Part shown: positions 1,096 through 29,117 of the stretch, one piece after another | How positions within the stretch are numbered: position 1 is the first letter of the stretch | How the letters are laid out: each line of letters starts with the position of its first letter | Source: Planctomycetota bacterium | GTDB taxonomy: Bacteria; Planctomycetota; Planctomycetia; JALXBF01 | Assembly (NCBI GenBank): GCA_026991575.1 | Contig: JALXBF010000065.1 | Location: 62,001 to 126,000 of the forward strand | Length of the DNA: 64,000 bases | Direction of reading: 5' to 3' | Translations under genes and position numbers: made by a program | Notes under the pieces: generated by a model | Told to the model about the DNA's origin: nothing | What the model saw: only the letters and a program-made list of their open reading frames with translations | Database searches by the model: none

Positions 1096-1169
1096 AGCGT
1101 TCGCCCGCCTGCGATCCCGTTGGGACGTGGCTGACCTGCTTGATCGGTCGTTTACGGAGGTTTTTCGAG

Positions 1170-2492: not shown

Positions 2493-2555
2493 GAGCAGAG
2501 AGGAAGCCGTTGGAGGTGGGCCCGGTCGGATTGAAGACCGGGCCCACTTCGCATT

Positions 2556-5672: not shown

Positions 5673-5851
5673 CGTTGTTCCGTTCCGGCTCTCTCTACCG
5701 CGACGTACTCGGTGAGCGGTATCGGGAGTGGGGCGTAGGTGCGATCCGTTGCAGCATCCTGTCGTGCTGCCTGGTCAGCTTGCCCGCGGCAAGAGGCGTC
5801 ATCTTCCCGGGCCTTCGGAACGGCTGTCCGGACGAGACGGTACCACCGGTG

Positions 5852-12634: not shown

Positions 12635-14647
12635 TCAGCGATGGGAACAGACCACGCCGAGTGCGATCTGTTCGAGCGGGATCGGCTCAAAGCCGATGCG
12701 ACGTACCGCTGCTGCATCCTTGAACCGTAGCCGGACCGGGCGCTTGGATCGATCGTAGACGATGCGTACCCAACGTGGGTCGTTGTCGAAGACCAGGTTG
12801 TTCTCGATGCGTTGCAGGTGTCGCGTGCCAGGGTGAATGTCGTCCCAGCTTCCGCCGGCGCTGATGTTCCTCACGAACACGTTCCGTTTCGGGACGCCCG
12901 GGTCATCCTCGAGAATAGTGGCCAGTGTCGGGTAACGGCGCCGCCAGAGAGGGCTGCGGAACGGCACGGCACGGAGCCGCCGCTGCAAGGTCCCGTTCGG
13001 ATCCATCGTTGCGGCCTTCTGCCACGTCATCCCTCGGTTGTCGACGTGGGCCGCCTTCCAACAGCGCACAAAGACGTTGTTGTCGACCACGTTGTCGTCG
13101 CCGCCACCGATGAACACTGCCCGCGAGCAGTCCACGAACAGATTGCCATAGATCGTGTGCCCGCACAGCTGGTCGTCCAGGTAGACGGTCATGCCACCCA
13201 GCCCGCCGTAGCCGCGGATGTCGTGCCAGTAGTTGTGCCGGAGCACGGTACCACGCTGTGTCCAATCGCGACCGACGTAGTAGGCCCCTGCGTCACCACT
13301 CTCGTACACGACGCGGAAGACTTCGTTGAACTCAATCACGTGGTCGTTTCCCGGCGCGCTCAGTGCCATGTGCGGCGCGTCGTGAATCACATTGTGGGCA
13401 ATCCGGTTGCCTACGCCACTAACAATCACGCCCGGGTTGTACGTGCGCCACCGGCGGGCGAACCGGTAGATATGATTCCGCTCGATGTTGTGGTGCGCCG
13501 GAGTCAGGCTCGGACGATCACCTCCGCTGGCCGAAACCCCGGTGCTGCCGCAGTACACCAGCTCGCACCCGGCCACTTCGTGCCCCTTCCCGCCGCGGAT
13601 CACAATGCCAGCCAATCCCGTGTTTCGAACGATGCACCGCTTGATACGACACGCCTGGCCCTGAGCAATCTCGATCGCGGTACCCCGGCAGTACTCAAAA
13701 ACGAACCCCTCAAATGTCACGAACGACACGTCGTTCAACCGCAGAAAGCCGTCGCCTTGGGACAACACCGTCCGTACCTGGCGCTTCGGCGGCCAGAAGA
13801 ACACCATGCCGCGGTCGCGGTCGATGTAGTACTCGCCCGGTTGATCCAGTTCGCACAACAGGTTGCTTGCGTACCACCGGGCTCGGCCGGGATCGATACC
13901 GTATTGCGGCTTTACGTCGGTTCTTCGGATCAACAGTCGGTTCTCTACGTCCACACCGGCCAGCGGCTCGTACAGTTCTGCCCAGTCGTATTTCCAGTAG
14001 GCCATCACCCACGGCGCCGGCTCCTGCGACCAGCGGCGCAGCCGATCGCGGCCCAGGTCCACCCGGAGCCGCCGGTCGTCTAGCTTTCCGGCCAGCCCTA
14101 CGAAGCCTTCGTTCGGGTAGCGTGCCAGTGTTGCGGGACGGCCGTCGTAGAACAGTTCAGCTTCGGCAAGCTGTTTCGGCTTGCCAAAACCGCGCACGCT
14201 CAGCTTTCCGACCGTTCTTACCCCGGGCTCGTCCGCAAGTCGCGCCACCTTGACGTGCCGCCGGGCCGCTGGCGGTAGCATCCGGAGAATTGCCGGGTCT
14301 GTAACCGGGCGCCACGTCGTCAGGGGGATGCCGGCCGTGAAGTGCACCGTACCGGCACGTTCGGCCCGATAGATCACCGGTGCCGCTGCAGTGCCGGAGT
14401 CTTCCTTGCCGAACACGACCATCCCATCGAAGCGGTACTTTCCCGGGGCGAAGGTCACAGTTACCGGGATGCGTTCCGAGCGCAGGATCGCACGCACACG
14501 ATCGCGCGCCCCGGCAAGCGTGCGGAGCGGTGCTGATCGGGTACCCGGATTCTCGTCGTTGCCATGTGGTGCCACGTACAGCTCAACTGGTCGGCTCATG
14601 CAATAAAGCAGCAGCAGTAGGAGCCTCGTCGCTAGCTGGCCGCTCAT
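12635..14647 (-). CDS. Secreted right-handed parallel beta-helix protein (polysaccharide lyase or GH141-like)
   Basis: LYVAPHGNDENPGT...PLRTL, ARYPN, ELDQPGEYY, repeated I-x-x-N beta-helix rungs, DAGAYY, VYLDD; signal-like LLLLLL after ATG 14647. Confidence 0.8.
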   Translation of the reverse strand: MSGQLATRLLLLLLYCMSRPVELYVAPHGNDENPGTRSAPLRTLAGARDRVRAILRSERIPVTVTFAPGKYRFDGMVVFGKEDSGTAAAPVIYRAERAGTVHFTAGIPLTTWRPVTDPAILRMLPPAARRHVKVARLADEPGVRTVGKLSVRGFGKPKQLAEAELFYDGRPATLARYPNEGFVGLAGKLDDRRLRVDLGRDRLRRWSQEPAPWVMAYWKYDWAELYEPLAGVDVENRLLIRRTDVKPQYGIDPGRARWYASNLLCELDQPGEYYIDRDRGMVFFWPPKRQVRTVLSQGDGFLRLNDVSFVTFEGFVFEYCRGTAIEIAQGQACRIKRCIVRNTGLAGIVIRGGKGHEVAGCELVYCGSTGVSASGGDRPSLTPAHHNIERNHIYRFARRWRTYNPGVIVSGVGNRIAHNVIHDAPHMALSAPGNDHVIEFNEVFRVVYESGDAGAYYVGRDWTQRGTVLRHNYWHDIRGYGGLGGMTVYLDDQLCGHTIYGNLFVDCSRAVFIGGGDDNVVDNNVFVRCWKAAHVDNRGMTWQKAATMDPNGTLQRRLRAVPFRSPLWRRRYPTLATILEDDPGVPKRNVFVRNISAGGSWDDIHPGTRHLQRIENNLVFDNDPRWVRIVYDRSKRPVRLRFKDAAAVRRIGFEPIPLEQIALGVVCSHR

Positions 14648-15095
14648 GGTGGGTTCCTCACGGAGGCACATGCACGGTGCGGTGGCAATCCGAGGGGCAA
14701 CGGCGGGGCGGATTCCATTGGGCGGTGTCCTAGCCATTATCCGCTAGACCATTTCTCCGGTGCGCTCTTGGCACGTACGCCGGCCCGCCGTCCCACAGCG
14801 GACCTTGGGGCACGACCGCGAGGTAGCCGGGGGGCATCGGATGGAGCGGCCAGCCGCGTGTGAGCCGTGTCGGCATGGGCGAAAACAGTAAAGCCACGTG
14901 CACCGAAGTGGACAGCACACTGCTTCCCCCAGAGGTGCTGTGGACTTGGCATGCAGCGCGACGGGAGTGCGCAGCCTGGCAACCTACAATCATGCAGAGC
15001 GGCCGGTGCTTGGGTGCTGGGCCTGTGCGGCGGAGCCTGTCCGATCTTGTAGCACGGCGACCGCCGGAGTGCCAAAGAACTCCAGAAGGGCGACC

Positions 15096-16730
15096 ATGCT
15101 AGCACGCTGCGTTGCGTTACTGGTGCTCGTGATCGGGCTCTTCGGTGACCGTCCGGTTGCTCGGGGCCAGGATCGGGATCGGTGGCAACGGGAAGCGACG
15201 TTCGTTCGTCTGAGGGTGGCTGCTGATGCTCGGCCGCTGCGGTACAGCCGACGCATCTTCGGTGGCTTCATCGAGCACTTCCACCGGCAGGTTTACGGCG
15301 GCATCTACGATCCGGGATCACCGTTTGCAGACGAGCGCGGCTTTCGGCTCGACGTTATCCGGGCCCTGCGAGCATTGAAGTTGGCCATCGTGCGCTGGCC
15401 GGGGGGATGTTTTGCCAGCGGCTATCACTGGCGCGATGGGGTCGGGGCTGACCGCCGGCCGGTTCCGGACCCGGTGTGGGGTGTGGTCGAGCCCAACCAA
15501 TTTGGAACCGACGAGTTTGTGCAATGGTGTCGTGCGGTCGGGGCAGAGCCCTACATCTGCACGAACGCCGGTAACGGAAGTCCTGAAGAGATGCGCGACT
15601 GGGTTGCGTACTGCAACGCCAGCACGGGGCGCCTTGCGGCACTACGTGCTCGCAACGGAAACCGTCGCCCACACGGCGTGCGCTACTGGAGCATCGGCAA
15701 CGAGAACTACGGTGAGTGGGAGATTGGCCAGAAGACACCGGAGCAGTGGGGGCCGTTTGTGCGGCGATGTGCGGAGCTAATGCGGAGCGTCGACCCGTCG
15801 ATCAAACTGGCTGCCCCCGCGCTCATCTCGGAACATTGGGACCTTCCCCTGTTGCGCACGGCTGGCGACCTGCTGGATTACGTTGCCGTGCACCGCTATT
15901 GGCTGGGGCTTTGGCAGGAGAACAGGCACGTGCCTTACGAACGGTGCCTTGACCTGTTCGATGGACCCGAGCAGGCCATTCAGCAGATGATCGCGATCTT
16001 GCGCAGAGCCGGCCGTCTGGGACAAGTGAAGATCGCATTCGATGAATGGAACCTGCGCGGCTGGCACCATCCGGGGTTCCCTCGCAAGGAGCCTGTGCGA
16101 GAGGATGATCCCGAGGTGCGCTTGCTCATCGCACGCCGCGACCTCAACGCTATTGCCAGCCAGTACACCATGGCCGATGCGGTCTTTGCCGCGTCCTTCC
16201 TGAACGCAAGCCTGCGGCATGCCGATGTCGTCGACATCACCTGCATCGCTCCAATCGTGAACACGCGGGGCCCCCTGTACGTGCATCCCAACGGGATCGT
16301 CAAGCGTACGACCTACCACGTGCTGGCGGTGTACGCCAACGAGCTGGCCGATCACGTTGTGCCGGTCACGAAACAGGCCCCCGATGACGACGCCCGGTGG
16401 ATGCTGCGCTATGTTGACGTGTTGGCGACCACGGATGGCCACAGGTCACGGTGGGCAATCGTGCTGGTCAACCGGCATCCGAAGTTGTCGGTCCGCTGCC
16501 AACTGATGCTCGGCAGACGACCAGTTGACGGAGCCGTGCCGGCGGTGTTGCTTACGGCCGATTCTCCAGAAGCGTACAACGACATCGAGTACCCGGATCG
16601 CGTGGTCCCGCGTCGCATCAAGCAGCTTTTCCGTGACGGCTTCACCGAAATCCCACCGTGCTCGATCACGGTCGTCGCGATCGGAAAGGGTCGGGACGGG
16701 GCCGAGCGTCGCGCCTCCTGGTCGAACTAG
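15096..16730 (+). CDS. abfA: Alpha-L-arabinofuranosidase, GH51
   Basis: FIEH, RWPGGCFA..YHWRDGVG, FGTDEF, WSIGNENYG (acid/base), IAFDEWN (nucleophile); signal peptide from ATG 15096. Confidence 0.92.
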   Translation: MLARCVALLVLVIGLFGDRPVARGQDRDRWQREATFVRLRVAADARPLRYSRRIFGGFIEHFHRQVYGGIYDPGSPFADERGFRLDVIRALRALKLAIVRWPGGCFASGYHWRDGVGADRRPVPDPVWGVVEPNQFGTDEFVQWCRAVGAEPYICTNAGNGSPEEMRDWVAYCNASTGRLAALRARNGNRRPHGVRYWSIGNENYGEWEIGQKTPEQWGPFVRRCAELMRSVDPSIKLAAPALISEHWDLPLLRTAGDLLDYVAVHRYWLGLWQENRHVPYERCLDLFDGPEQAIQQMIAILRRAGRLGQVKIAFDEWNLRGWHHPGFPRKEPVREDDPEVRLLIARRDLNAIASQYTMADAVFAASFLNASLRHADVVDITCIAPIVNTRGPLYVHPNGIVKRTTYHVLAVYANELADHVVPVTKQAPDDDARWMLRYVDVLATTDGHRSRWAIVLVNRHPKLSVRCQLMLGRRPVDGAVPAVLLTADSPEAYNDIEYPDRVVPRRIKQLFRDGFTEIPPCSITVVAIGKGRDGAERRASWSN

Positions 16731-16990
16731 CCTGCGCGATGGCTTTCACGCGCTGTCGGGGCCACAGCCAATCGCACCGGGTTTCCTGGCCGCCGGTAGC
16801 AGCGGCTGACACGCCGTCAGGGTGGCACGCAGCCGGCCTTTCTACTCCATGAGGGACGCGAGCGCGGCGCGCGACGATTGCATCTCGGTAGCATGAAGGT
16901 GGCTCATGCACCACTGAACGCACGCCCTGAAGCAGCCAACTTTGGCTCTAAGGGGCACGGACAGTAGGCCGCCACTGGCGCTGAGATGCC

Positions 16991-18295
16991 ATGCCTTTGA
17001 CCCTCTGGATCCTGCTTTCCGCCGCCGTCCTGGTTACTGCCACGCCGGCCGCTTCAGAACCTATCCGTTCGTTCCCTTGCCCCGATCCGTCCATTCTGGC
17101 CGATGCCAAGGGCCGAGTGTACTTCATCGTCTGCACCGGTCGCGGGATCCCGCTCTGGTTCAGCCGCGATCTGAAGCGATGGCAGCGAGTCGGCCGGATC
17201 TTCCGCGAGGACGTGCCTGAGTGGGCACGCCAGAAGGTACCTACGGCACGGACCATCTGGGCACCAGACCTGAAGCGAGTCGGTAATCGCTATTACATCT
17301 ACTATTCAGTGTCCACACTCTTCCAACAGCGCTCTGTCATCGGGTTGGTGATCGGGACATCGCTCGATCCAGAGCAGCCCTCGTTTCGCTGGCACGACGT
17401 TGGCCAGGTCGTCGAGTCCCGACCGGGCGATGCGTTCAATGCTATTGACCCGGCCCTGCTGGTGACACCGTCGGGCGAGGGCTACCTGTTCTGGGGCTCG
17501 TTCTGGGACGGAATCAAAGCGGCTCCGGTGTCGCTGGAGACGGGTAAGCTCTTGATCCCAGCGCGTCAGGCGAAGGCCGTTGCTCGCCGCGTACCGCCGG
17601 CACCACCGGCCATCGAAGGGGCATACCCGATTTACCGCGAGGGTTGGTATTACTTGTTCGTCTCCTGGGACTACACCTTTGCCGGTGACCCGCAGGAGGC
17701 AACTTACAAGATCGTCGTGGGACGCTCTCGCCACCCCCTTGGTCCGTACGTCGACCGCCTTGGCGTGCCGATGACGCGGGGGGGCGGTGAGCTCGTTCTG
17801 ATGAGCACGCGGCGCTGGCGCGGTACGGGTCACAACAGCGTACTCATTACCGAGACCGGTAGCTGGCTGGTGTACCACGCAATTGACGCGCGAAATCCGC
17901 GGGCCGGTCGACTGCTCCAGGTGCGGCAGCTTCGCTGGATTGACGGCTGGCCCGTGGCCGGACCGCTGGTCCTGCCGAGCACTTCGGACCGGCCCACTAC
18001 GCCGCAGGACCACATCGTCGGCCGCTGGACGCATGTCCAGCCGGATGGCAGACGCGTGGACATTTTCCTGGAACCGAGTGGCCTGATCAGCGGTGTGCGA
18101 ACGGTGGCCCGGTGGCGGCTACTGGCACCGGGGCGGCTGGAGCTGCGCTGGCCCAGCAACCAGGCTCCGGGAGGTGCCTGGGTTGATCGGGTCAGGCTGA
18201 TTGGCCATGAGCGGTACGAGGGCACCAATCAGCTCGGACATCCCGTACGCGGCTGGCGCCGCAGTTGTGCCGTTCCGGGCCTGCAGAGCCGGTAA
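16991..18295 (+). CDS. GH43 endo-1,5-alpha-L-arabinanase-like enzyme with an extra C-terminal beta domain
   Basis: Signal peptide; DPSI, WAPD, NAIDP, WGSFWDGI, AIEGA, GHNS (three-carboxylate GH43 pattern). Confidence 0.88.
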   Translation: MPLTLWILLSAAVLVTATPAASEPIRSFPCPDPSILADAKGRVYFIVCTGRGIPLWFSRDLKRWQRVGRIFREDVPEWARQKVPTARTIWAPDLKRVGNRYYIYYSVSTLFQQRSVIGLVIGTSLDPEQPSFRWHDVGQVVESRPGDAFNAIDPALLVTPSGEGYLFWGSFWDGIKAAPVSLETGKLLIPARQAKAVARRVPPAPPAIEGAYPIYREGWYYLFVSWDYTFAGDPQEATYKIVVGRSRHPLGPYVDRLGVPMTRGGGELVLMSTRRWRGTGHNSVLITETGSWLVYHAIDARNPRAGRLLQVRQLRWIDGWPVAGPLVLPSTSDRPTTPQDHIVGRWTHVQPDGRRVDIFLEPSGLISGVRTVARWRLLAPGRLELRWPSNQAPGGAWVDRVRLIGHERYEGTNQLGHPVRGWRRSCAVPGLQSR

Positions 18296-18404
18296 CGCTG
18301 TCCCCGTTCGCACTGCCACCCGTCACCGCATCTTACAATGGGACCGCTTGGTCTGCTGCCGGCATGCCCGCCCGACGGTTCCGTTCAGACAACGGGGTGA
18401 CAGC

Positions 18405-20942
18405 ATGCGAGCGGGTTCATGGCCGACGATGCCCTTCTGGCTTGCGGCTGTCTTCTGCACGTGCGTGTGTGCCGAAGGTCAGGTTCTCGAGATGGTGCAT
18501 CGCAATCCTGACCCTTATGGGGTGCCTCGACCCGCTCCGGGCGCAAAGCACGTGCCGCTCCGCACGAGCATTTGGATTCACTTCCGGCTGCGTGACGCCG
18601 CGAGCACGGACCGCGTGCTTGCCGACTCGGTCCGCGTGCTGCTTCAAGACGAACACGGCGGCGAACAGCCTCTCGTGGAGCCAGGCCAACGATTTGTTCC
18701 GCCGGCCTCAGGCTGGTTCGCCACCTCACCGCTCCGCCCCCAGGAGCTGATGCTTTACATCGAGCCTGGCCGTTCCTTGTCACCCGATACGCGGTACACG
18801 ATTCGGGTGCAAGCTCGCTCGGCCGATGGTCTCGAGCTTACGTCCCGTTGGCGCCGCTGGCAGTTCCGGACAGAAGCTGCGCCGATGAGCCATGAGTACA
18901 GGTTTGCCGTGAACCTATCGGCCCCGCCCGTGCGCTGGCACGGAGGCTTCTTCACGGGCATCTGTAACGTCGTCTTCTGCACTACCGAACAGGAGTTCGG
19001 ACCGCTGTACCGGGCGATCCGGCAAGTGCGTCAGCAGCATCCGCGAGCGTGGCGCACAAGGCGAGACATCTGGTTGACATTCAACGACGAGTGGCGACCC
19101 GACTGGGCCGTCTTCATGAACCCCCGCTGGCCGAACATCGTTCGGGAGCGTGAGACGCGACGCGTCGTCGAGTTGGTTCAACTAGACGAAGCGCTGGTTG
19201 TTCGGGTGGAGGATGTGTTTGGCTGCGAGCAGTACGGCGTGCCGCCAGATCGGCCGCTGGCTGCCGACTATCAGCCGGGCTATGAGGTGATCGTTGCCGA
19301 CCGCGACCATGCCGTCCGCACGCGGGTGCTCGGCGTCGATGAACAAAGGCGTCTCGTCCGACTTGAGCCGGTGGAACTGCCGAAAGGGGGCTTCCGTATC
19401 GAGTACTCCGCGCCGCCCCCCGAGCAGGAGGATCCGGACGCACCGGGACGGTTTGCTGGCGGCGGCACCTATCTGCGCCGACTCCGTCCGCCGGGCACTC
19501 CGGTCTACTTTTGGCAACGCCTGGACGCAGAGTACGACAAAGCATGCCGACTCGGTCAACGAATCATCGTCAACTTTGTGGGCGCTCCGCCCGATCTCGC
19601 CATCGGCGGCGAGAACGAGCCGAGGCCCAAGGACTACGTCCAGTGGCACGAGGTAGTGCGAACGATTGCCGGGCACCTAATCGACCGGTATCGCGAACAA
19701 GCCCTCTCGTTCAAGTGGAGCGTCTACAACGAACCGGACCTACACCCGTACTGGAGACGGAACTGGGAAGAAACCCAACGCTTCTACGACTACACGGTCG
19801 ATGCCGTGTTGAGGGCGTTTGAGGACCGCGGCTACGATTCGTCTCGAGTTCTGGTCGGTGGTTGGGAGTTGGGGGCAATCTTCGGCACACACCTCAGGTT
19901 ACGCGAGATACTGGCGCACTGCTCGCCACAGGCGGAAGCTGCCGGGGCGCTGGAGGAGAACGCCGCTTACGCTGACAAGCGCCTGGATGGCAAGAGGTCG
20001 CGCCGAGTGGAGCGGCTGTGCCGCGAGCACGCGGGCCGCGGTAGCCCGTGCGATTTTCTGTCGATCCATGCCTACAACCGCTCGTGGCTGGCAGCGGCGA
20101 AGTTCATCCGCGCCAAGCAGATGGCGCTTGAGGCCGATAGCAAGTTCTTCCGGGACCTCGCCATTGACTCCAACGAGACTTGTCCCAACTGGAATCCGCC
20201 GCCTGATCCAGCCGCCGTGGACAGCTACTCGGGCAACGGTTATTTTGCCTCGTGGTGCTACGACGTCGCCCATCACATGCTGCTGCAGGCAGCGCGCGAC
20301 GCGCGTTACGGCTTCGGAGAATATGCTCTGACCATTTGGCCGCCGCCGGTCGGGTTCTCAGGGATCAATACGCTGTATCGCCGCATCCCCGTCGACCTGG
20401 ACGGCGACGGCCGGCAGGATGAGCAGGTGGCGGTGCCCGAACAGGTGTTTCACGCAGTGACATTGCTGTCGGACTTCGGCCCGGACTTCTGGCCGTTGCC
20501 GGCAGCCGGAGCGGAGGGCCATCGGGTCGGCGGGTTCGTTTCAGGAGACGTGCACGGCACGCTGCGTGTGGCGCTGGTAACGCACCATGCTGAAGATACC
20601 CAGTCGCGTTCCGAGCGGACGTTTCGTATCGTGGTCCAGCTTCGTGGCCTCGCCGCTGAGAGGGTCTACCGAGCGGTCGAGTACCGCTTTGACCGGCTCC
20701 ACAACACCACTCTGCAGCTTGCACGCCAGCACCGCCCGTTGCCTGGCAGGATACGGACGGTCTTTCCCGCCGAGCTTGCTCGTGCCGTGCGCGACGCTGC
20801 ACAGCTACAGGGGCGCGGAGCCGAGAAGTTAACCACGGACAGGGCCGGGCGGCTCCTCTTGCGGCCCGAACCGCTGGTAGGCAATGCGGTGAGCGTGTGG
20901 GTGTTGACGCCCGAGCCGGCATCGGTTGAGGCCGAGCGCTAG
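18405..20942 (+). CDS. Secreted Ig-like domain plus GH39-like (clan GH-A) hypothetical hydrolase
   Basis: Signal peptide from ATG 18405; Big_5-like segment PAPGAKHVP...LSPDTRYTIRV; WSVYNEPD, DFLSIHAY, DSNE. Confidence 0.62.
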   Translation: MRAGSWPTMPFWLAAVFCTCVCAEGQVLEMVHRNPDPYGVPRPAPGAKHVPLRTSIWIHFRLRDAASTDRVLADSVRVLLQDEHGGEQPLVEPGQRFVPPASGWFATSPLRPQELMLYIEPGRSLSPDTRYTIRVQARSADGLELTSRWRRWQFRTEAAPMSHEYRFAVNLSAPPVRWHGGFFTGICNVVFCTTEQEFGPLYRAIRQVRQQHPRAWRTRRDIWLTFNDEWRPDWAVFMNPRWPNIVRERETRRVVELVQLDEALVVRVEDVFGCEQYGVPPDRPLAADYQPGYEVIVADRDHAVRTRVLGVDEQRRLVRLEPVELPKGGFRIEYSAPPPEQEDPDAPGRFAGGGTYLRRLRPPGTPVYFWQRLDAEYDKACRLGQRIIVNFVGAPPDLAIGGENEPRPKDYVQWHEVVRTIAGHLIDRYREQALSFKWSVYNEPDLHPYWRRNWEETQRFYDYTVDAVLRAFEDRGYDSSRVLVGGWELGAIFGTHLRLREILAHCSPQAEAAGALEENAAYADKRLDGKRSRRVERLCREHAGRGSPCDFLSIHAYNRSWLAAAKFIRAKQMALEADSKFFRDLAIDSNETCPNWNPPPDPAAVDSYSGNGYFASWCYDVAHHMLLQAARDARYGFGEYALTIWPPPVGFSGINTLYRRIPVDLDGDGRQDEQVAVPEQVFHAVTLLSDFGPDFWPLPAAGAEGHRVGGFVSGDVHGTLRVALVTHHAEDTQSRSERTFRIVVQLRGLAAERVYRAVEYRFDRLHNTTLQLARQHRPLPGRIRTVFPAELARAVRDAAQLQGRGAEKLTTDRAGRLLLRPEPLVGNAVSVWVLTPEPASVEAER

Positions 20943-21300
20943 CAGTGGTACGGTGCCGCAGGACGGTTGTGCCTTGTAGCCGTAGCGAGCTGGGCGTGCT
21001 GGGGTGTCAGTTCGGGCATTACGCTCACGATCACGGTGCCCTGTCCCCGAAGCTTGCGAGCCAGCCGTCTGCCAATGGATCGGGGCCGCTGCCAGCCAGT
21101 GGTCTGCACCGGATCGACCGATCGAATGTGCGCTGATTTCCTCACTCGGCAAAGGTATCCGCAAAGCAACGGACCTGAACGCCTCTCCGGTGCCTCGCCA
21201 CGGAACGCCGCGGGCGCAGGGGTGGTGTCGTAGTGTGTTTGCCGTGTGCGGGAAGAGCGGCGGGCCGCCAGCCGGATCTGGAAGAACCAAGCAAACAGCT

Positions 21301-21722
21301 TCATTTGCTCACAGCGTCCGGACCCGTGAAGACGTTACGAAGCAGCGCGAGACTCTTCGGAACGGCCCTACGTGGATCCCCGCGTCCTTCGAATTCCAGC
21401 GATAGTATCCACGGTGCCCGCGGCGGCACAGGGTGTCGACGATCCGATCGTAGCCCAGGTTGAGCGTGTCCCAGATGCCGCCACCGTAGTAGGACTTTGC
21501 CTGCACGAGGACGATATGCGGCGCGAGCTTTTCGAGTTTGTCGCACGGATCTTCCGGGAAGTTGCCCGTGTCCATCGTGACGCCCAGCCACGGTGAGTCG
21601 ATCGCGTAGACAGTTCTCATCGTGCCCTCAGGCGTTCGGCCCAACCGCCGGAGGTCCGCGAGGCTGAGCTCGACGCCGCAGCGTTCAGCCGCCGGCAAAG
21701 ACGGCTCCAAACGCTCCTTCAC
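21301..21722 (-). pseudogene. Truncated, frameshifted sugar-phosphate isomerase/epimerase (xylose-isomerase-like TIM barrel)
   Basis: Contains DSPWLGVTMDTGNF...VQAK. The C-terminal SLEFEG...PKSLALLR lies in another frame (shift near 21403). LENH is replaced by LADL and the N-terminal half is absent. Confidence 0.75.
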
Positions 21723-22138
21723 CCAGGCGAAAACGGCGAGGCATTCTCGTCTATGTGGCCGGGCAGTGGCGGTTCAATGCCTCGCGGGACGATCAGCGCA
21801 TCGAAGCTCTTGATCGTGCCCCAGCGACTGGTGCTCGCGGGTATGGTCGAGATGCCTGGCCGATAGGGCAGCTCGTTGCTCGTGATGGTTCGTGCGACGC
21901 TGCGCTTTCTGGCGCCGACCGGTTGGCGCCGGGCCTTGTTCGAACTCGTCTCATTGGGTTACCTCGGGAGCTGTGTCCGTGGTCAACCGTTCTGAGCGCG
22001 CGCTGCTGCCTGGCTTTGCCCGGTAGGTAGCGATGACACCCGTCCCGCTGAGGTGCTTGCCATGCGTGCACGAGCCGAAGCGATGGCTGTCGTCGGGGCT
22101 CACCCGGCTGGACCGACTGTCTTGCCCTGAACGGGGTA

Positions 22139-22167
22139 TTGACCATAAAGAGTGGTTTATTTATCGT
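22139..22167 (+). promoter_or_regulatory. Sigma70-type promoter TTGACC-17-TATCGT upstream of the HzsA-like gene
   Basis: AT-rich island in GC-rich DNA with a 17-bp spacer; AGGAG RBS at 22193-22197. Confidence 0.55.
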
Positions 22168-22205
22168 ATTTTCGGTAGCCGGGAACCTGTGCAGGAGACC
22201 CCGCG

Positions 22206-24689
22206 ATGGTCGTTCTCAAACAAGCCCTTCGCGCCGTCCTCCTCCAGCTGCTGCTTGTTGCCAACCTCGTCAGCGATCCGGCCGGCGCCGCAGCTGGCGA
22301 AGTTGACCAGGTACCGATCGAAGAGGTCGTTTTCGCGGTACGCAAGCCGGGCCCGGACGGGCACTGGTACGCGAACTTCGGGTACTACTGCGAAGGTCCA
22401 AGCCGGGTTGCCTACACCGAGGGCTCGCAGTTGTGTCGGCTCAACCTGCGCACGGGTAAACTCACCGTGCTCTTGCACGACCCGCGTGGTACGATCCGCG
22501 ATCCGCAGCTAAGTTACGACGGCAAACGGATCCTGTTCTCCTACCGGCCCGGCAACTCGATGTACTTTCATCTGTACGAGATCAACATCGACGGGACAGG
22601 TCTGCGCCAGATCACGGACGGGCCGTACGACGATATCGAGCCGACGTACGTTCCCGACGGCGGGATCGTGTTCTGTTCCAGCCGGTCGCGGCGTTGGGTC
22701 AAGTGCTGGCTGGTTCAGGTGGCCACTCTCTACCGGGTGGAACGCGATGGTTCCGGATTGATGCCCCTTTCGGCGGCGAACGCCACGGAGAACACTCCCT
22801 GGGTCTTGCCGGACGGGCGGATTCTGTACACCCGATGGGAATATGTTGATCGCAGCCAGGTGCATTACCACCACCTCTGGGTCATGAACCCGGATGGGAC
22901 GGGCCAGATGGTGCTTTACGGCAATCTCTATCCCGGCACGGTCATGATTGATGCGAAGCCGATTCCAGGGTCGGACAAGATCGTGGCGATCTTTTCCCCG
23001 GGGCATGGCCGTCGTGAGCACCAGGGCGCTGTGACGATCGTCGATCCGACGCTGGGGCCGGACGTTCCCGCCGCCGCGCGGCGCATCACCCAGAGCGTCG
23101 ATTACCGCGATCCTTACCCCCTGTCCGATCGGTTGTTCCTGGTAGCCCGTGGCCCGGTTCTGGAGCTGCTCGATGATGCCGGTAATGGCCGTGAGCTCTA
23201 TCGTTTGCCGAAGACGCTGGTCGAAAAAGGCATGTGGCTCCACGAACCGCGGCCGGTAAGACCCCGGCCGGTCGAGCCTGTGATTCCGCATCGGATCGAC
23301 CCCTCGAAGGCCACAGGCCGAGTGGTTCTGCTGAACGTCTACGCCGGCCGAAACATGGCGGGCATCCGGCCCGGGGAGATCAAGAAACTGCTGATCCTCG
23401 AAACGCTGCCCAAGCCCATCAACTACACCGGTGGCATGGACCCGCTGACGTACGGGGGATCGTTCAGCCTGGAGCGTGTGGTCGGAACGGTACCGGTCGA
23501 GCCGGACGGCTCGGCCTACTTTGAGCTGCCCGCGCTACGCAGCTTCTTCTTCGTTGCCCTCGACGAAAACGACATGGCGGTCAAGCGGATGCAGAGTTTC
23601 ATGAGCGTCCAGCCGGGGGAGGTCACCAGCTGCTTCGGTTGCCATGAGAAACGCAACGAGACTGCTAGCCCGGACATCGGCCCTGTAATGGCGCTACAGC
23701 GACCGCCCAGCAAGATCAAGCCCATCGAGGGGGTCCCCGACGTGCTCGACTTCCCGCGTGACGTCCAGCCCATCCTGGATCGCCACTGCGTCGCTTGTCA
23801 CGATTACGAGCCCACGGCCAAAGGGGGGCCCTACGCCGGAGGCGTGGTCCTCACGGGGGATCACGGTCCGATGTTCTCGCACAGCTACTACACGCTCACC
23901 GTACGCCGCTTGTTCTCCGACGGCCGCGATCTGCCGAGAAGCGAGTACCCACCGCGGGCCATCGGGTCGTCGGCCAGCAGGCTGCTGAAAATGGTGGACG
24001 GTTCCCACCACGGCGCACGGCTGAACCGCCACGAGTTCACTGTACTTCGGCTCTGGATTGAGACTGGTGCAACGTACCCCGGTACGTACGCCGCGCTCGG
24101 TACCGGCATGATTGGCGGCTATCACGAGAATCGCCAGTACAACACCGACTGGAACTGGCCGACGACCAGGGCCGGCGCGGCCGTTATGCGGAACCGGTGT
24201 GCCAGCTGCCATACGGGGCCGCGTCAGTTGCCAACAGCTCTCTCCGACGAACGGAACGTTTCCTTCTGGCGGCCTAGCCTCGATGATCCCCGCCTCAAGT
24301 ACAGCCGCCACATCGTCTTCAACTTGTCTCGCCCTGACAAGTCGCTTCTGCTGCTTGCGCCGCTGAGCAGGGACGCCGGCGGCCTGGAGCTGTGCCGCAA
24401 GCTCACCCCGGACGGCCGGCCCACAACCGCTCCGGCAACCGTCTTCACCTCACGGGACGACCCTGACTACCAGACGCTGCTGCGAATGGTGCAGGCCGGG
24501 AAGGCGTTCCTGGCGAAGATCAAGCGGTTCGACATGCCGGGCTTCATGCCTCGTCCGGAGTACTTGCGCGAAATGCAGCGTTACGGTGTGCTGCCGCCCG
24601 ACTGGAAACCGGGTCAACCGGTGGATCCCTATAAGCTGGACCAGGCCTACTGGCGCAAGCTCTGGTACCGCCCGCGCCGGTTGCCATAG
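22206..24689 (+). CDS. HzsA-related secreted multihaem protein (TolB-like propeller, HZS-alpha middle domain, cytochrome c domains)
   Basis: Signal peptide; PD40-type blades (DPQLSYDGKRILFS, EPTYVPDGGIVFCSSR, PWVLPDGRILYTRWEY); GTVPVEPDGSAYFELPA...QPGEVTSCFGCHE; CxxCH motifs at 23631, 23787 and 24198. Confidence 0.8.
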   Translation: MVVLKQALRAVLLQLLLVANLVSDPAGAAAGEVDQVPIEEVVFAVRKPGPDGHWYANFGYYCEGPSRVAYTEGSQLCRLNLRTGKLTVLLHDPRGTIRDPQLSYDGKRILFSYRPGNSMYFHLYEINIDGTGLRQITDGPYDDIEPTYVPDGGIVFCSSRSRRWVKCWLVQVATLYRVERDGSGLMPLSAANATENTPWVLPDGRILYTRWEYVDRSQVHYHHLWVMNPDGTGQMVLYGNLYPGTVMIDAKPIPGSDKIVAIFSPGHGRREHQGAVTIVDPTLGPDVPAAARRITQSVDYRDPYPLSDRLFLVARGPVLELLDDAGNGRELYRLPKTLVEKGMWLHEPRPVRPRPVEPVIPHRIDPSKATGRVVLLNVYAGRNMAGIRPGEIKKLLILETLPKPINYTGGMDPLTYGGSFSLERVVGTVPVEPDGSAYFELPALRSFFFVALDENDMAVKRMQSFMSVQPGEVTSCFGCHEKRNETASPDIGPVMALQRPPSKIKPIEGVPDVLDFPRDVQPILDRHCVACHDYEPTAKGGPYAGGVVLTGDHGPMFSHSYYTLTVRRLFSDGRDLPRSEYPPRAIGSSASRLLKMVDGSHHGARLNRHEFTVLRLWIETGATYPGTYAALGTGMIGGYHENRQYNTDWNWPTTRAGAAVMRNRCASCHTGPRQLPTALSDERNVSFWRPSLDDPRLKYSRHIVFNLSRPDKSLLLLAPLSRDAGGLELCRKLTPDGRPTTAPATVFTSRDDPDYQTLLRMVQAGKAFLAKIKRFDMPGFMPRPEYLREMQRYGVLPPDWKPGQPVDPYKLDQAYWRKLWYRPRRLP

Positions 24690-24760
24690 GCGATCCCTGC
24701 CCCCCGGCACGAGCGTGTAGGTGTGGAGCAGGCCCGCTGCGCCGCTGTGGAGGTGCCGCG

Positions 24761-26683
24761 ATGAAGACGAGCCCGAGCATGCTATTTCTCACCATCGGTG
24801 GGCTGCTAGTCCTAGGGACACTCGCGAACGCGGGCGGCAATCCGGTGCGCTCTCCTCAGGCTGTGGTTGTTGGGGACGATGCGGTCGTGGTGCTGGACCG
24901 CACGGCTGCTGAGTTGGTCCGACTTGACCGTAACCTCAAGCCGGCCGGAAGGACGCTCCTTACTGGCGATCCGTGTGCCGTGACGATAGCGCCGGGCAAG
25001 CCGCTGGCTTACGTTGCCGAACGCACGGCAAACCGGATCGCCGTCGTCGACCTCCAACAGGATCGTGTTATCCGACGCGTGTCCATTGATGGAGGAGCGT
25101 GGCCGGTGAGCCTGGCGGTTGACCGCGATGGTCGGTGGTTGTACGTGGGGACCGCTTTTCCCGCGAAGCTCTTCATCTATCGGCTGGGGGCCGACGGTAC
25201 TGATCTGGAACCGCTACTGGCCGTTCCCGTGTTACGCTGGCCGGCGGACCTGGCGATCGGACCCGATGGCGTGACGGTGGCGGTAGCAAACCAGCTGCCG
25301 GTGCGACTCGAAGGCGTCACAGGGCCGACGGCGGCAGTAAGTCTGGTTTCGTTCAATCCGTCCGACCCAGGTCGTTGGCACCGATCCGATATCCCATTGC
25401 CACCAGGTTCTTCGGGGTTGCGCGGTGTTGCCTTCAGTCCCGACGGGCACTACGTATACGCGGTGCACGGTCTGGGGCGGGTGCGCAGTCCGATCACGCA
25501 GCTGGAACGCGGCTGGGTGAACACCAACGCGCTCAGCATCATCGATACCGTCTCGAGGCGGCGCGTTGCCACCGTGTTGCTGGATGACCTATACCGCGGA
25601 GCGGCGGATCCGGCCGACGTAGTCTGCAGCCCGGACGGATCGCGGTTATGGGTTGCGCTGGCCGGCAGTCACGAGCTAGTTCGGATTAACATCGCCGACC
25701 TGCACCGGTTACTCCAGGGAAGCGTGCCTGGGTGGCTTGAGCGTATCGAGGACAGCATGCAGGCGAACATCTGGGTGCGCCTGCGTGATAACCCGTCGTT
25801 AGTTCGGCTACTGGAGAACGACCTTGCCGCCTTGCGCCTCGCCCGCGTGAAGCTGCGGCTGCCAGCCGGTGGGTTCGGACCCCGCGCTCTGGCGATCTCT
25901 TCCGATGGCGCGACGGTGTATGTGGCGAACTACTTCAGCGGTTCGCTGACCGCTATTTCGACTGCCGATCCGACCCGGAAACGAACCGTTCTGCTGGGGC
26001 CGATGGCCGAGCCGGATGCGGTGCGCCGCGGTGCGCTGATCTTTCACGACGCACGCCGCTCGTTCCAGCATTGGCACAGCTGTGCCACGTGTCATCAACA
26101 CGGCGGCCGTGTGGACGGGTTGAGCTGGGACTTCGTGGCCGATGGCCTGGGCAACCCGAAGGACACCGTCAGCTTGATCGGACTGGCGGAGACCGAGCCG
26201 ATGAACCGGCGCGCAACGGTAGCCAACGCGTACGACTGCGTGCGCAACGGCCTCTTTTCGACGAATCTGAAGCCGGTCGAGCGGCGCGTGGTAGACGACC
26301 TGTTCGCATACCTCGCGGCTTTGCGGCCCGAGCCGAGCCCCCTACCGCTTGTTGACCCGAAGCTGGCGGAGCCGGCCCGTCGTGGGAAACAGCTGTTCGA
26401 AGGCAAAGCGGGATGTGCTGGCTGCCACAGCGGCCCGTACCTGACGGACGGCAAGATGCACAATGTTGGCACCGGCAGCGGGCACTGGGAGGAGGCTGAC
26501 GGCCGCTACGATACGCCGTCGCTTCGGGAGCTGTACCGGACGGCGCCGTACTTGCACGATGGCCGCGCGTGGACGCTACGCGAAGTGCTCACAACGTTCA
26601 ACCGCCGCCAGCGCCATGGACACGTCGAGCGTTTGAGCGCCGCGGAGCTCGATGATTTGATCGCGTACTTACTGTCCCTCTGA
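24761..26683 (+). CDS. YVTN/YncE beta-propeller fused to a di-haem cytochrome c peroxidase/MauG-like domain
   Basis: Signal peptide; blades VAFSPDG..VY, CSPDGSRLWVA, AISSDGATVYVAN; RRGALIF...CATCH (26081), RRGKQLF...CAGCH (26414), TPSLRELYRTAPYLHDG. Confidence 0.85.
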   Translation: MKTSPSMLFLTIGGLLVLGTLANAGGNPVRSPQAVVVGDDAVVVLDRTAAELVRLDRNLKPAGRTLLTGDPCAVTIAPGKPLAYVAERTANRIAVVDLQQDRVIRRVSIDGGAWPVSLAVDRDGRWLYVGTAFPAKLFIYRLGADGTDLEPLLAVPVLRWPADLAIGPDGVTVAVANQLPVRLEGVTGPTAAVSLVSFNPSDPGRWHRSDIPLPPGSSGLRGVAFSPDGHYVYAVHGLGRVRSPITQLERGWVNTNALSIIDTVSRRRVATVLLDDLYRGAADPADVVCSPDGSRLWVALAGSHELVRINIADLHRLLQGSVPGWLERIEDSMQANIWVRLRDNPSLVRLLENDLAALRLARVKLRLPAGGFGPRALAISSDGATVYVANYFSGSLTAISTADPTRKRTVLLGPMAEPDAVRRGALIFHDARRSFQHWHSCATCHQHGGRVDGLSWDFVADGLGNPKDTVSLIGLAETEPMNRRATVANAYDCVRNGLFSTNLKPVERRVVDDLFAYLAALRPEPSPLPLVDPKLAEPARRGKQLFEGKAGCAGCHSGPYLTDGKMHNVGTGSGHWEEADGRYDTPSLRELYRTAPYLHDGRAWTLREVLTTFNRRQRHGHVERLSAAELDDLIAYLLSL

Positions 26684-26815
26684 GCGGTCCTGCACGTACG
26701 ACGCTCCGGGGCAGGCCTCACGGTAGGCAGCATAAGGACGCACCGTGAGAAGGTCTCATCTGGGCAGCGACGACGGCGCCGATTGCGGCTTGCCCCGGGT
26801 CAACATGCGATGCGC

Positions 26816-26855
26816 AAAGAGCGCGGGGCCCTGCCTGCTGGCAGGACCCCTGCGC
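26816..26855 (-). terminator. Intrinsic terminator downstream of the minus-strand oxidoreductase
   Basis: GC hairpin with arms 26821-26835 and 26840-26855, followed by TCTTT on the minus strand. Confidence 0.55.
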
Positions 26856-26874
26856 AGCATGATGCACGATGAGG

Positions 26875-28221
26875 TCAGGCGCCGGGCATGGCTACGGGGT
26901 AACGGCCTTCCTCGTCGGGTAGCACAGGCGGAGGTGTGTCCCAGTCCATGTGGTCGATGTCGGCAACAAGTTGCTCATCGGAATGGAACACTTCGTCCCA
27001 GGTTACCAGCTTGCCGCTGTGTGCCGCGATTCTGCCCATGATGGCTGTCATGCACGCATAGACGCACCGCTCGGTCTCGTTGTAGTCCTTGTTGTTTCGG
27101 ATAGCATCAACGAGCAGGTCCATCTCGACCTGATAGGGGTTGGGCTCAGGCCCCGTGTAGCGCCAGGCGATCTGCTTGCTGTCGAACTTGTATCCCTTGT
27201 AGATGACCGGATTGGGCCGGGCCAGGTTCTGCATGATGCGGGCACTCCGCCTGGTACCGTGGGCGTAGTCGGCGAACTCATTCCAGCAGCCGGCGATGTG
27301 CCGCCCCTGGGCAAAGAGCCGCGAGCCGTCGGCGAAGATGTACTCCACAGCGTAATGGTCCCACATCTGGTCTGGCTGTCGTCTCACCTGGCGGCCACCC
27401 TGGCCCTGGGCTGCCACCGGCCAGCTTCCCTTGGCCCAGCAGCAGACGTCGATGTTATGAATCAGCCAATCGACGAAGAAGCTGCCGTTCAGCCAGGTGA
27501 AGCAGCTGTAGTTACGGATCTGATGGGCCAGCTCATTCTCGCCAGGCCGTCTTGGCTTGAAGCCCACCGGCCCGTGCATGCGGTAGGTGCGTAGCAGGAT
27601 GACGTGGCCGATCTCACCGTCGTGGATCCGCCGGATGATCTCCTGCCGTGGGGCATCGTGCCGCCACATCAGGCCGCCCGCGATCTTGAGGCCTTTTTCC
27701 TGCGCTAGCCGCCCGGCACGCAGCACGCGGCGCAGCCCAGGCGGGTCAACCCCAAACGATTTTTCCATGAACACGTTCACGCCCCTCTTGACCGCGTACT
27801 CCACATGCACGGGGCGAAACGCCGGCGGGGTGGCCAACAGCACGACGTCGCTGGGGCCCAACAGGTCGATGGCCTTGCGATACGCGTCGAAGCCAAGAAA
27901 CTGGCGTTCTGGCGGCACGTCCACTTGCGGCCCGAAGCGCCTGGTCAGTGCCCGTAGGCTGGAGTTGAGGCGGTCACGGAAGACGTCGGCCATGGCCACG
28001 ACCTGCACAGGGCCTGAGGTTGACAGGATATTGGCTGCGGCCCCGGTACCACGACCGCCGCAGCCAACGAGCGCGACCCTGATAACGTTTTGCTCGTGGA
28101 TGTACCCCGGGCCTCGAGCCAGCAGGGGTCGGGTAGCAGCGGCTGCGGCGACTGCCGCGGAGGCTCGGCTCAAGAATTCGCGGCGAGACGACCGGGGATC
28201 GAAACGGTTTTTCTCAGCCAT
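26875..28221 (-). CDS. Tat-exported Gfo/Idh/MocA family oxidoreductase
   Basis: SRREFL Tat motif, ALVGCGGRGTGA, ATPPAFRP, MEKS, IHNID; clear paralogue of 1170-2492. Confidence 0.9.
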   Translation of the reverse strand: MAEKNRFDPRSSRREFLSRASAAVAAAAATRPLLARGPGYIHEQNVIRVALVGCGGRGTGAAANILSTSGPVQVVAMADVFRDRLNSSLRALTRRFGPQVDVPPERQFLGFDAYRKAIDLLGPSDVVLLATPPAFRPVHVEYAVKRGVNVFMEKSFGVDPPGLRRVLRAGRLAQEKGLKIAGGLMWRHDAPRQEIIRRIHDGEIGHVILLRTYRMHGPVGFKPRRPGENELAHQIRNYSCFTWLNGSFFVDWLIHNIDVCCWAKGSWPVAAQGQGGRQVRRQPDQMWDHYAVEYIFADGSRLFAQGRHIAGCWNEFADYAHGTRRSARIMQNLARPNPVIYKGYKFDSKQIAWRYTGPEPNPYQVEMDLLVDAIRNNKDYNETERCVYACMTAIMGRIAAHSGKLVTWDEVFHSDEQLVADIDHMDWDTPPPVLPDEEGRYPVAMPGA

Positions 28222-28244: not shown

Positions 28245-29117
28245 TCAGGAACCTGGCTTCAGGTGGGCTGGCTCAGGGGATTGCTCAAGGTCACGAATCA
28301 GTCGGCTCAGGTAGGCAAAGCTCTGCTCCGCCTGATCGACCGTGCCGCATTCGACGCTGAGGACGATGTCCCGTGGCGCTTTCCGGCAGAGCCGCACGAC
28401 GGCTTGCCAGTCGATGACCCCGTCGCCGCAGGCACAGCCAACCGGTGTACCCGTCACGCGACCGCGTTCAGCTTCCGCCTGGGCCTGAGAGATGTCCTTG
28501 GCGTGGACGTGGACGAGCCTGGGCAGGACGTGTTCGAGCCAGGCGATCGGGTCCTGACCGGACAGGTAAGCATTGCCGGTGTCGAAGTTGATGCCGACAA
28601 CGGGTGCAGGCACAAGGTTGATGATCTCATCGAGTCCCCCGGGCGTGCGGCTGTACTGTTGGTGCGGTTCCAGGCCGATGAGAATGCCGCGTCGTTCAGC
28701 GACGGCGACCACTTCGGTGAGCACGTACTTCATGAGTACGAAGTCTTCGTCGCGCGTGGTCCAGCTCGGCTTGGGGCCTTCGTCCGTGTTGACCACCGGG
28801 GCGCCGCATTCGGCCGCGAAGCGGACCGCCAGTTTGAGCGATTCGGTGCTGACTTCTGGTTTGCACAGCGGCATGTGGGCGGATAGCCCCGAGATGCGCA
28901 CGCCGGCACGTTCGCAAATGCGGGCGATTCGGAGCGGATCGTCAAAGAGCGAGATCGAGTGAAAGTAGCCGGCTTCGCTGAGGAGTTCTCGGCCGAAGTG
29001 GACCATGGGCTCGACGAACTCATAGCCGATCTCGGCCGCTTTCTCCACTCCCCATTCAAACGGCTTGTCCGCGTGCCGCACGAATTCGAGGTTAATGCCC
29101 AGCCGCACACGCCCCAT
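28245..29117 (-). CDS. Sugar-phosphate isomerase/epimerase (xylose-isomerase-like TIM barrel)
   Basis: Intact metal motifs GLEPH, NFDTGN, HVHAKD, LSVE. Confidence 0.88.
   Translation of the reverse strand: MGRVRLGINLEFVRHADKPFEWGVEKAAEIGYEFVEPMVHFGRELLSEAGYFHSISLFDDPLRIARICERAGVRISGLSAHMPLCKPEVSTESLKLAVRFAAECGAPVVNTDEGPKPSWTTRDEDFVLMKYVLTEVVAVAERRGILIGLEPHQQYSRTPGGLDEIINLVPAPVVGINFDTGNAYLSGQDPIAWLEHVLPRLVHVHAKDISQAQAEAERGRVTGTPVGCACGDGVIDWQAVVRLCRKAPRDIVLSVECGTVDQAEQSFAYLSRLIRDLEQSPEPAHLKPGS

Follow-up and report, generated by a model that had tools for sequence, protein, structure and literature searches.

Hydrazine synthase (HZS) was, to our knowledge, long held to have no relatives. According to the available text of Hagglund et al. 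2025 (Genome Biol Evol, December 2025, PMC12758564), the enzyme itself is known only from anammox Planctomycetota, and alpha-like genes lie beside fused beta-gamma-like genes in non-anammox Planctomycetota, the carriers given being Aquisphaera, Thermogutta, Novipirellula and Anaerohalosphaera, with a few in other phyla. The same text sorts the homologues into clades I–IV, states that key HZS residues are not conserved and that beta-gamma homologues are far more widespread than the few alpha homologues, and concludes that HZS evolved from pre-existing periplasmic haem proteins. It describes residues for clades I–III only, with Trp at the gamma-His144 position and, in clade I, extra N-terminal haems; in clade IV, FG-GAP/CRTAC1 neighbours are missing and the gene order is specific to the taxon. 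Here we analyse one such pair, gene 1 (alpha-like) and gene 2 (fused beta-gamma-like), in a 64,000-nucleotide stretch of a Planctomycetota bacterium (assembly GCA_026991575.1, contig JALXBF010000065.1, positions 62,001 to 126,000), hereafter the window, whose first letter is position 1. The pair is an ordinary member of a large, published and functionally uncharacterised family and adds little new in kind. We read it, with a probability of about 0.62, as a joint periplasmic redox unit on the HZS scaffold, the chemistry of which would be other than hydrazine synthesis and the substrate of which we leave unassigned.

Gene 1 passes the Pfam model of the HZS_alpha middle domain (PF18582; 72.5 bits against a cut-off of 26.6, residues 390–481), matches the PD40 propeller repeat and carries CxxCH motifs at residues 476, 528 and 665. 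By sequence, its nearest solved structure is chain A of the Kuenenia stuttgartiensis enzyme (5c2v_A, E value 3.8e-16). Its AlphaFold model, with a predicted local distance difference test (pLDDT) score of 70 and a predicted template-modelling (pTM) score of 0.63, aligns with the same chain over 769 columns (E 1.6e-28, template-modelling (TM) scores 0.52/0.56), and BLASTP against a Kuenenia-type HzsA returned 22% identity over 657 columns. Gene 1 is a full-length relative of HzsA and a member of the HZS_alpha-domain, or ‘HzsA-related protein’, family. The architecture given for it in the initial annotation, namely a propeller, an HZS-alpha-type middle domain and three CxxCH motifs, is borne out by the PF18582 and PD40 matches, the motifs themselves and the 5c2v_A fold match. 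An ESM Atlas search with the C-terminal 198 residues of gene 1 returned only unnamed clusters and cytochrome fragments.

Gene 2 matches Pfam models for a Lactonase/YVTN-type propeller, CCP_MauG and Cytochrom_C, of which CCP_MauG is a marginal pass (30.8 bits against 25.6, residues 421–457), and has CxxCH motifs at residues 441 and 552. Its nearest solved structures by sequence are 5c2v_B (E 1.3e-24) and 5c2v_C (E 1.3e-23); with profiles built from its relatives these values improve to 6.1e-49 and 5.8e-45, respectively. The AlphaFold model (pLDDT 79, pTM 0.84) places the propeller on 5c2v_B with an E value of 2.4e-23 and a TM score on the target of 0.84, and BLASTP against the Kuenenia-type proteins gave 28% identity to HzsB (350 columns) and 29% to HzsC (279 columns). 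The Pfam matches and those to 5c2v_B and 5c2v_C agree with the earlier description of gene 2 as a propeller fused to a di-haem domain of the cytochrome c peroxidase (CCP)/MauG type with two CxxCH motifs. In the models, both N-termini are hydrophobic helices that contain no Cys (gene 1 residues 2–22, gene 2 residues 6–24), and they resemble Sec signal peptides that lack a lipobox Cys. Judged by sequence and models, the signal peptides noted previously on both genes are probable.

Judged from sequence and modelled folds, the two genes are genuine but distant relatives of HZS, sharing common ancestry with all three of its subunits. The proposal that the pair rebuilds the whole HZS domain set, alpha plus fused beta-gamma, stands on the profiles and on the sequence and fold matches to the 5c2v chains, in a genome with no true HzsA. 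With the K. stuttgartiensis enzyme (PDB 5C2V) the pair has in common the domain set and its order, the four haem motifs, the beta loop and the full-length fold match, whereas it is set apart by identities of 22–29%, by changed key residues, by the beta-gamma fusion and by its alpha-first gene order. Gene 1 differs further from HzsA in an extra third-haem domain of 200 residues. All four NCBIfam equivalogs of HZS fall below their cut-offs: NF052339 (HzsA) scored 80.6 bits on gene 1 against 800, NF052342 (the beta-gamma fusion) 132.3 against 1250, NF052340 92.2 against 560 and NF052341 83.8 against 625. The host assembly (4.96 Mb, 191 contigs, 97.8% complete) has no match to NF052339 at E ≤ 1e-100, and the absence of an equivalog-level HzsA upholds the view that this genome is not anammox; the NF052339 cut-off is passed in 17 of 401 sampled genomes of the same phylum.

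For residue mapping, the reference HzsA, HzsB and HzsC were Kuenenia-type genes from a genome of the same phylum, the numbering of which matches the literature (alpha C303, H587, Y591 and H772; gamma C102, C105, H106, H144, C165 and D168; beta 245–260). They were compared with 22 rows of the gene 1 family and 29 relatives of gene 2. The four HZS haem motifs are kept throughout, the alpha-I and alpha-II CxxCH in 22/22 rows and the gamma-I and gamma-II CxxCH in 29/29. In HZS, Tyr591 is the proximal ligand of haem alpha-I, and His587 and Cys303 hold zinc. Tyr591 is replaced by Asn484 in gene 1 (T in 19, N in 2 and S in 1 of the 22 family rows), and Cys303 by Leu241 (L, M, Q or F in the family). 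Haem alpha-II of HZS is bis-His, with alpha-His772 as its distal ligand; that column is a gap in 22/22 rows, the alpha-II CxxCH itself (C528–H532) being kept, and the invariant His601 of gene 1, just upstream of the gap, might serve as the alpha-II ligand.

On the gamma side, His144 of HZS lies near haem gamma-I and Cys165 forms a third covalent haem link, a thioether. The His144 position is Arg483 in gene 2 and varies in the family (S 17, I 5, V 3 and R 1 of 29). Cys493 of gene 2 falls on gamma-Cys165 in two HMMER alignments and four residues off it in the MAFFT alignment; its conservation reaches at least 90% in the 20 closest relatives (21-row set), and in the 29-row set the position is mostly Ala. 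The third covalent haem link may thus survive at Cys493 as an HZS-specific feature. Gamma-Asp168, the proposed proton donor of HZS according to the available text of PMC12607021, corresponds to Asn496 by HMMER or to Ser500 by MAFFT, and the family has mostly H in the MAFFT column. Because the residues behind the unusual chemistry of haems alpha-I and gamma-I of HZS are replaced, the pair would make no hydrazine. At the second haem of gene 2, the family-invariant His619 falls, by alignment, on the ‘MHG’-motif His of HzsC, for which reason this haem may be bis-His, as is haem gamma-II, with His the likeliest sixth ligand.

The propeller loop GRVRSPITQLERGWV of gene 2 is equal in length to HzsB 245–260. 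None of the 29 relatives departs from Q247, G251 or W252, and position 249, where gene 2 has E249 aligned opposite beta-Glu256, is acidic in every one of them (E 17, D 12); residues 241–252 have low pLDDT and form the least confident stretch of the propeller model. According to the available text of PMC12607021, the HZS loop comes close to the tunnel that runs between the two catalytic haems. By alignment, the beta-subunit loop clearly survives in gene 2.

We then asked how often the two genes occur together. A scan of a genome collection with gene 1 confirmed at least 594 relatives, and the best 80 (52–65% identity), which by their record titles span Planctomycetota, Verrucomicrobiota, Hydrogenedentota, Acidobacteriota and Armatimonadota, were used. 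A gene 2 relative is present at 35 of these 80 loci and on the same strand in all 35; it occurs at 26 of the 46 loci that are well flanked, with at least 2.5 kb on both sides, and at 9 of the 34 others. Gene 1 comes first in 13 of the 35 pairs and gene 2 in 22, and the spacing is at most 416 bp, or the genes overlap, in 31. No other neighbour family reaches more than 8 loci (sulfatase 8, Gfo/Idh/MocA 7, response regulator 5, RidA-like 5). A candidate cluster of neighbours at 10 loci proved to be an open reading frame (ORF) antisense to gene 1 and was discarded as no real neighbour family. From the gene 2 side, 221 relatives came out of a metagenome scan; 80 of them were used, and 30 of these 80 have at least 2.5 kb on both sides. 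Within the 30, six show a close, same-strand relative of gene 1 and another six a distant alpha-like gene (5 on the opposite strand).

Trees of the two partners, built from 44 pairs plus the window pair and a second pair of the host genome, have many sub-clades in common, and partner pairwise identities correlate with r = 0.76 over 990 row pairs, which as kin are not independent. The one apparent discordance concerns the window pair: nine ‘class X’ pairs are grouped with it in the gene 2 tree (Shimodaira–Hasegawa-like approximate likelihood-ratio support 100) but not in the gene 1 tree. A chimeric origin of the window pair by partner swap was considered and dropped, as the approximately unbiased test does not reject a grouping of the window with those nine pairs (p = 0.347). 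The pair is inherited as a unit in many lineages, by a link that is facultative and not obligatory. The expectation that pairing is conserved in other genomes therefore holds in part: it stands for 26/46 loci, five phyla and both gene orders, and fails as a general rule, 20/46 loci being unpaired.

The second, diverged HZS-like pair of the host genome lies on contig C109 (4215–9226, minus strand) in the opposite order, beta-gamma then alpha. Its beta-gamma-like member has 714 amino acids (aa) and two CxxCH motifs, its alpha-like member 937 aa and three, and the two are 29–35% and 32% identical to the window pair. A seven-haem cytochrome gene (880–2211, plus strand) and a Gfo/Idh/MocA gene (2288–3607, plus strand) are its neighbours.

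In the scheme that we favour, the two genes would form one co-transcribed unit, since the 71-bp gap lacks a terminator-like site and a ribosome-binding site precedes gene 2. Both proteins would be exported, matured with haem via the ResB system and located in the periplasm; the host genome has a ResB-type cytochrome c maturation gene and four COX1-family matches (haem-copper oxidases). Gene 1 would provide the alpha-like subunit, with a six-bladed propeller, the HZS_alpha middle domain, two HzsA-type haem sites and the third-haem domain, and gene 2 the fused beta-gamma-like subunit, with a seven-bladed propeller and the CCP/MauG-fold di-haem domain. The two would act together as an HZS-style redox unit, a physical complex being suggested by the gene pairing. 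Electrons would pass between a carrier and the second haem of gene 2, in a direction of flow that we infer, and the first haem of the same protein would serve as the site for a small molecule. Substrate specificity would come from gene 1, which would contribute a probably normally His-ligated alpha-I-type haem, two more haems and a conserved propeller site of its own. A partial complex fold (gene 1 residues 386–827, gene 2 residues 415–640 and four haems, both propellers left out) scored 0.11 and 0.02 against a mark of 0.32, an outcome that speaks in neither direction on binding.

As to substrates, the accessory modules carried by gene 1 relatives make glycans, or compounds derived from sugars, a likelier lead than nitrogen oxides. 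N-terminal modules occur on 58 of the 120 closest gene 1 relatives (discoidin/NedA-like 43, PL4 CBM-like 14, DUF7402 1). Of 150 listed representatives, the 50 scanned were those with a match that spans most of the query, and 14 of them have modules that bind or act on glycans (PL4 CBM-like 5, Laminin_G_3 3, F5/8 type C 2, NPCBM 2, 3-keto-disaccharide hydrolase 1, SASA esterase 1). The exported Gfo/Idh/MocA and xylose-isomerase-like genes that adjoin both pairs of the host genome fit this lead. Window proteins include GH43, GH39-like, an alpha-L-arabinofuranosidase C-terminal domain, beta-helix, sulfatase, Gfo/Idh/MocA and xylose-isomerase-like TIM barrels, in keeping with the sugar-degrading setting recognised in the initial annotation.

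Several observations weigh against a joint unit acting on such substrates. At 20 of the 46 well-flanked gene 1 loci no gene 2 relative lies within 7 kb. Pairing there differs by architecture, at 24/34 for short ORFs (<940 aa) and 2/12 only for long ones (≥940 aa), one of those two being an over-extended ORF call; ORF lengths were counted from the first start codon and may be too long. From the other side, 18 of the 30 well-flanked metagenome loci have no alpha-like gene. Gene 2 also diverges much faster than gene 1 at the same loci (34–50% versus 51–65% identity). In five genomes reached through the loci, the alpha-like matches (17, 12, 6, 9 and 58) far outnumber the beta-gamma-like ones (6, 5, 2, 2 and 5), these being matches and not copy numbers, so that most alpha-like proteins cannot have a dedicated beta-gamma neighbour. 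The glycan link rests on fusions in relatives, gene 1 itself being without such a module, and glycoside hydrolase (GH), sulfatase and Gfo/Idh/MocA neighbours are common in these phyla regardless. Literature searches, finally, found no expression, biochemical or structural study of any family member. At one locus in one of those five genomes, the complete genome of an isolate (G404, C1 4588574–4599721, L036), one beta-gamma-like gene is followed by four tandem alpha-like genes on the same strand.

Some of these counts would also be expected if the two proteins were independent, gene 2 being a stand-alone periplasmic di-haem peroxidase or oxidoreductase with a propeller as its scaffold and gene 1 a separate haem enzyme, brought together by co-regulation or shared descent. 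The 18/30 loci without an alpha-like neighbour and the excess of alpha-like matches fit such independence, as do three further beta-gamma-like matches of the host genome that lie away from gene 1-like matches (on C109, C162 and C6; two are full di-haem ORFs) and the wider spread of beta-gamma homologues in the available text of PMC12758564. Independence accounts poorly, however, for pairs that keep to one strand with near-zero spacing, in both orders and in five phyla, for a second paralogous pair in the same genome, for partner trees that are largely congruent and for conservation of the tunnel-facing beta loop. We consider it unlikely, and a joint redox unit the better explanation.

A broader proposal concerns the alpha-like tri-haem proteins as a whole, which could be a large class of glycan-directed periplasmic haem oxidoreductases that diversify in the manner of glycoside hydrolase families, HZS being a late recruitment from among them. 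Such diversification is suggested by up to 58 matches per genome and by the swapping of discoidin, PL4 CBM-like, ConA-like, NPCBM and 3-keto-disaccharide-hydrolase modules among alpha-like relatives. If this were true, these proteins would perform, or take electrons from, oxidative sugar chemistry, for example a 3-keto-glycoside route, with which the exported Gfo/Idh/MocA and xylose-isomerase-like genes beside both pairs are compatible, and the smaller set of beta-gamma-like di-haem proteins would serve the alpha-like ones. We offer this as a speculative and doubtful extension.

Handling of nitrogen oxides by the pair, for instance reduction or detoxification of NO or hydroxylamine at the gamma-I-like haem without N–N bond formation, finds an argument in the gamma-like domain, which is nearer to HzsC than to any peroxidase (E 1.3e-23 versus 3.5e-10). 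The alignment of invariant His619 with the ‘MHG’ His, which fits a bis-His second haem, and the conserved Cys493, where it falls on gamma-Cys165, point the same way. The MAFFT alignment does not reproduce that Cys165 match, however, and both the gamma-Asp168 proton donor and gamma-His144 are replaced. No nitrogen-cycle genes were found in the window annotation or in the annotated neighbour clusters of related loci, and the modules on relatives are glycan-binding. On balance nitrogen oxides are an improbable substrate.

Gene 2 could instead be a maturase of the MauG/MbnH type that, by oxidising one gene 1 residue, installs a cofactor or metal site in the propeller of that protein, without being a permanent subunit. 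The C-terminal domain of gene 2 shares with di-haem cytochrome c peroxidases and MauG/MbnH the fold, the arrangement of the two haems and the conserved TPSLRE..APYLHDG stretch, and gene 2 gives weak matches to MauG, MbnH and His-Xaa-Ser-system MauG-like models. A possible target would be the His/Trp/Tyr-rich motifs DGHWYANFGYY and RWEYVDRSQVHYHHLW in the gene 1 propeller, which are family-invariant and missing both from HzsA and from the second alpha-like paralogue of the same genome; they suggest that the propeller has a site of its own. A maturase, moreover, would need neither adjacency to its substrates nor equal numbers with them. The curated models nevertheless score far under their cut-offs (MauG 59.9 against 443.85, CytoC_perox 18.7 against 150, MbnH 49.6 against 362.85), and the domain is unlike those enzymes in being propeller-fused and nearer to HzsC. 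The conserved HzsB-like loop suggests a stable HZS-like assembly, and we regard a maturase as very improbable.

That the pair is the true hydrazine synthase of an unrecognised anammox-like organism is next to inconceivable, since set against the shared domain set are equivalog scores at about one-tenth of the cut-offs, the replacement of Tyr591, Cys303, gamma-His144 and gamma-Asp168, the extra third-haem domain, and a genome with haem-copper oxidases and without an equivalog-level HzsA.

The family to which the pair belongs is large. Gene 1 has 1,707 representatives at 50% identity with E ≤ 1e-30 and 6,096 with E ≤ 1e-10. A PF18582 match is present in 27 of the 151 genomes sampled from the phylum, and five of these 27 have a true HzsA as well; this survey replaces an earlier protein-based one, which gave at least 12/151 with a maximum of 6 candidates scored per genome. 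Relatives at 59–65% identity carry the NCBI name ‘HzsA-related protein’; gene 1, which passes PF18582, resembles the proteins under these two labels, which are names without an attached function. No paper in the literature searched uses the name ‘HzsA-related’ and, judging by titles and abstract starts, PMC12758564 alone among the listed papers on ‘HZS_alpha’ concerns non-anammox homologues.

As in the homologues described in the available text of PMC12758564, an alpha-like gene here adjoins a fused beta-gamma-like gene outside anammox, with key residues lost. By that text the window resembles clade IV in having no FG-GAP/CRTAC1 gene, and in relatives of either gene order, a likeness by neighbourhood and not by tree; among the window ORFs scanned, neither an FG-GAP/CRTAC1 nor an ABC-transporter neighbour was found. 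The pair is unlike clades I–III, as described there, in having Arg483 at the gamma-His144 position, and unlike clade I in that gene 2 has two haems only, whereas the beta-gamma member on C109 has Trp at that position, as in clades I–III. Two further differences from the paper are the third haem domain of gene 1, which its available text does not mention, and the 1,707 alpha-like representatives here against few there. The suggestion in the initial annotation that this is an undescribed system is therefore withdrawn, co-located pairs having been published in December 2025 (PMC12758564, available text) and the family already having its NCBI name; its suggestion of an ancestral scaffold of HZS coincides with the view published there.

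The scaffold that gave rise to HZS is visible in such pairs, which are frequent among heterotrophic Planctomycetota, Verrucomicrobiota, Acidobacteriota and further phyla; across phyla, gene 1 relatives are about 60% identical. The window locus offers a cleanly minimal example, a single alpha-like and a single beta-gamma-like gene free of accessory modules, in a genome that has a second diverged pair, and such a minimal pair suits a first biochemical characterisation. Among 14 control genomes, only Bacteroides thetaiotaomicron has a PF18582 match over the cut-off, which could open a way to function through its rich functional-genomics data; no papers were found that pair ‘hydrazine synthase’ with ‘Bacteroides thetaiotaomicron’.

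Table 1 Features of the gene pair in window coordinates.
Feature	Coordinates	Strand	Description	Basis
Sigma-70-like match	22139..22167	+	TTGACC-17-TATCGT, in an AT-richer patch upstream of gene 1	
Gene 1	22206..24689	+	827 aa, tri-haem HzsA-related protein, predicted exported	ORF call, profiles, fold match
TolB-like beta-propeller of gene 1	22317..23345	+	approximately residues 38–380	model strand pattern, TolB matches
HZS_alpha middle domain	23373..23648	+	residues 390–481, first haem motif at its end	PF18582, 72.5 bits
Haem motif 1, CFGCH	23631..23645	+	C476–H480, counterpart of haem alpha-I	invariant in 22/22 family rows
Haem motif 2, CVACH	23787..23801	+	C528–H532, counterpart of haem alpha-II	invariant in 22/22
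C-terminal extension	24093..24686	+	about 200 residues (approximately 630–827), no HzsA counterpart	HzsA row ends near residue 628
Haem motif 3, CASCH	24198..24212	+	C665–H669	absent from HzsA; invariant in family
Intergenic gap	24690..24760	+	71 bp; GGAGG 7–8 nt before the gene 2 start; without a terminator-like site	
Gene 2	24761..26683	+	640 aa, seven-bladed HzsB-like propeller fused to HzsC-like di-haem CCP/MauG-fold domain, predicted exported	
Propeller loop GRVRSPITQLERGWV	25475..25519	+	residues 239–253, counterpart of the HzsB 245–260 loop	alignment
HzsC-like di-haem domain	26003..26680	+	residues 415–640	alignments to HzsC
Haem motif CATCH	26081..26095	+	C441–H445, counterpart of catalytic haem gamma-I	
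Haem motif CAGCH	26414..26428	+	C552–H556, counterpart of electron-transfer haem gamma-II	

Both ORFs lie on the same strand and their coordinates were verified, which confirms a two-gene unit with a 71-bp gap. No terminator-like sites were found in 20900–27000, the gap included. The claim that the unit has its own promoter is not confirmed: its start at 22139 is the first hexamer of the sole sigma-70-like match near the pair, and 1 such match was found against 1.0 expected from shuffles, which is not significant alone.

Upstream, a 137-aa ORF (21309–21722, minus strand) is separated from gene 1 by 483 bp; it covers positions 105–203 of 249 of a xylose-isomerase-like TIM barrel model, below the cut-off, and is probably a gene remnant. 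Downstream and convergent with gene 2, 26875–28221 (minus strand) encodes a 448-aa protein with the twin-arginine-type N-terminus RREFLSRASAAVAAAAA and a Rossmann-like GCGGRG motif; it has no Pfam match at 1e-5. It is followed by a xylose-isomerase-like TIM barrel protein (28245–29117, minus strand), and by sequence the two look like an exported Gfo/Idh/MocA-type sugar oxidoreductase module. Elsewhere in the window, two plus-strand genes (8570–10927, 785 aa, and 11024–12613, 529 aa) at the edge of a glycoside hydrolase cluster (12635–20942) have no Pfam match at 1e-5. A DnaE-type polymerase (1,038 aa) adjoins an impB/mucB/samB-family protein (581 aa) in 2556–7597 (minus strand), an arrangement that resembles an imuB-dnaE2 cassette for damage-inducible mutagenesis. 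At 50420–63928 the minus strand has a giant ORF (4,502 aa), which may extend beyond the window end.

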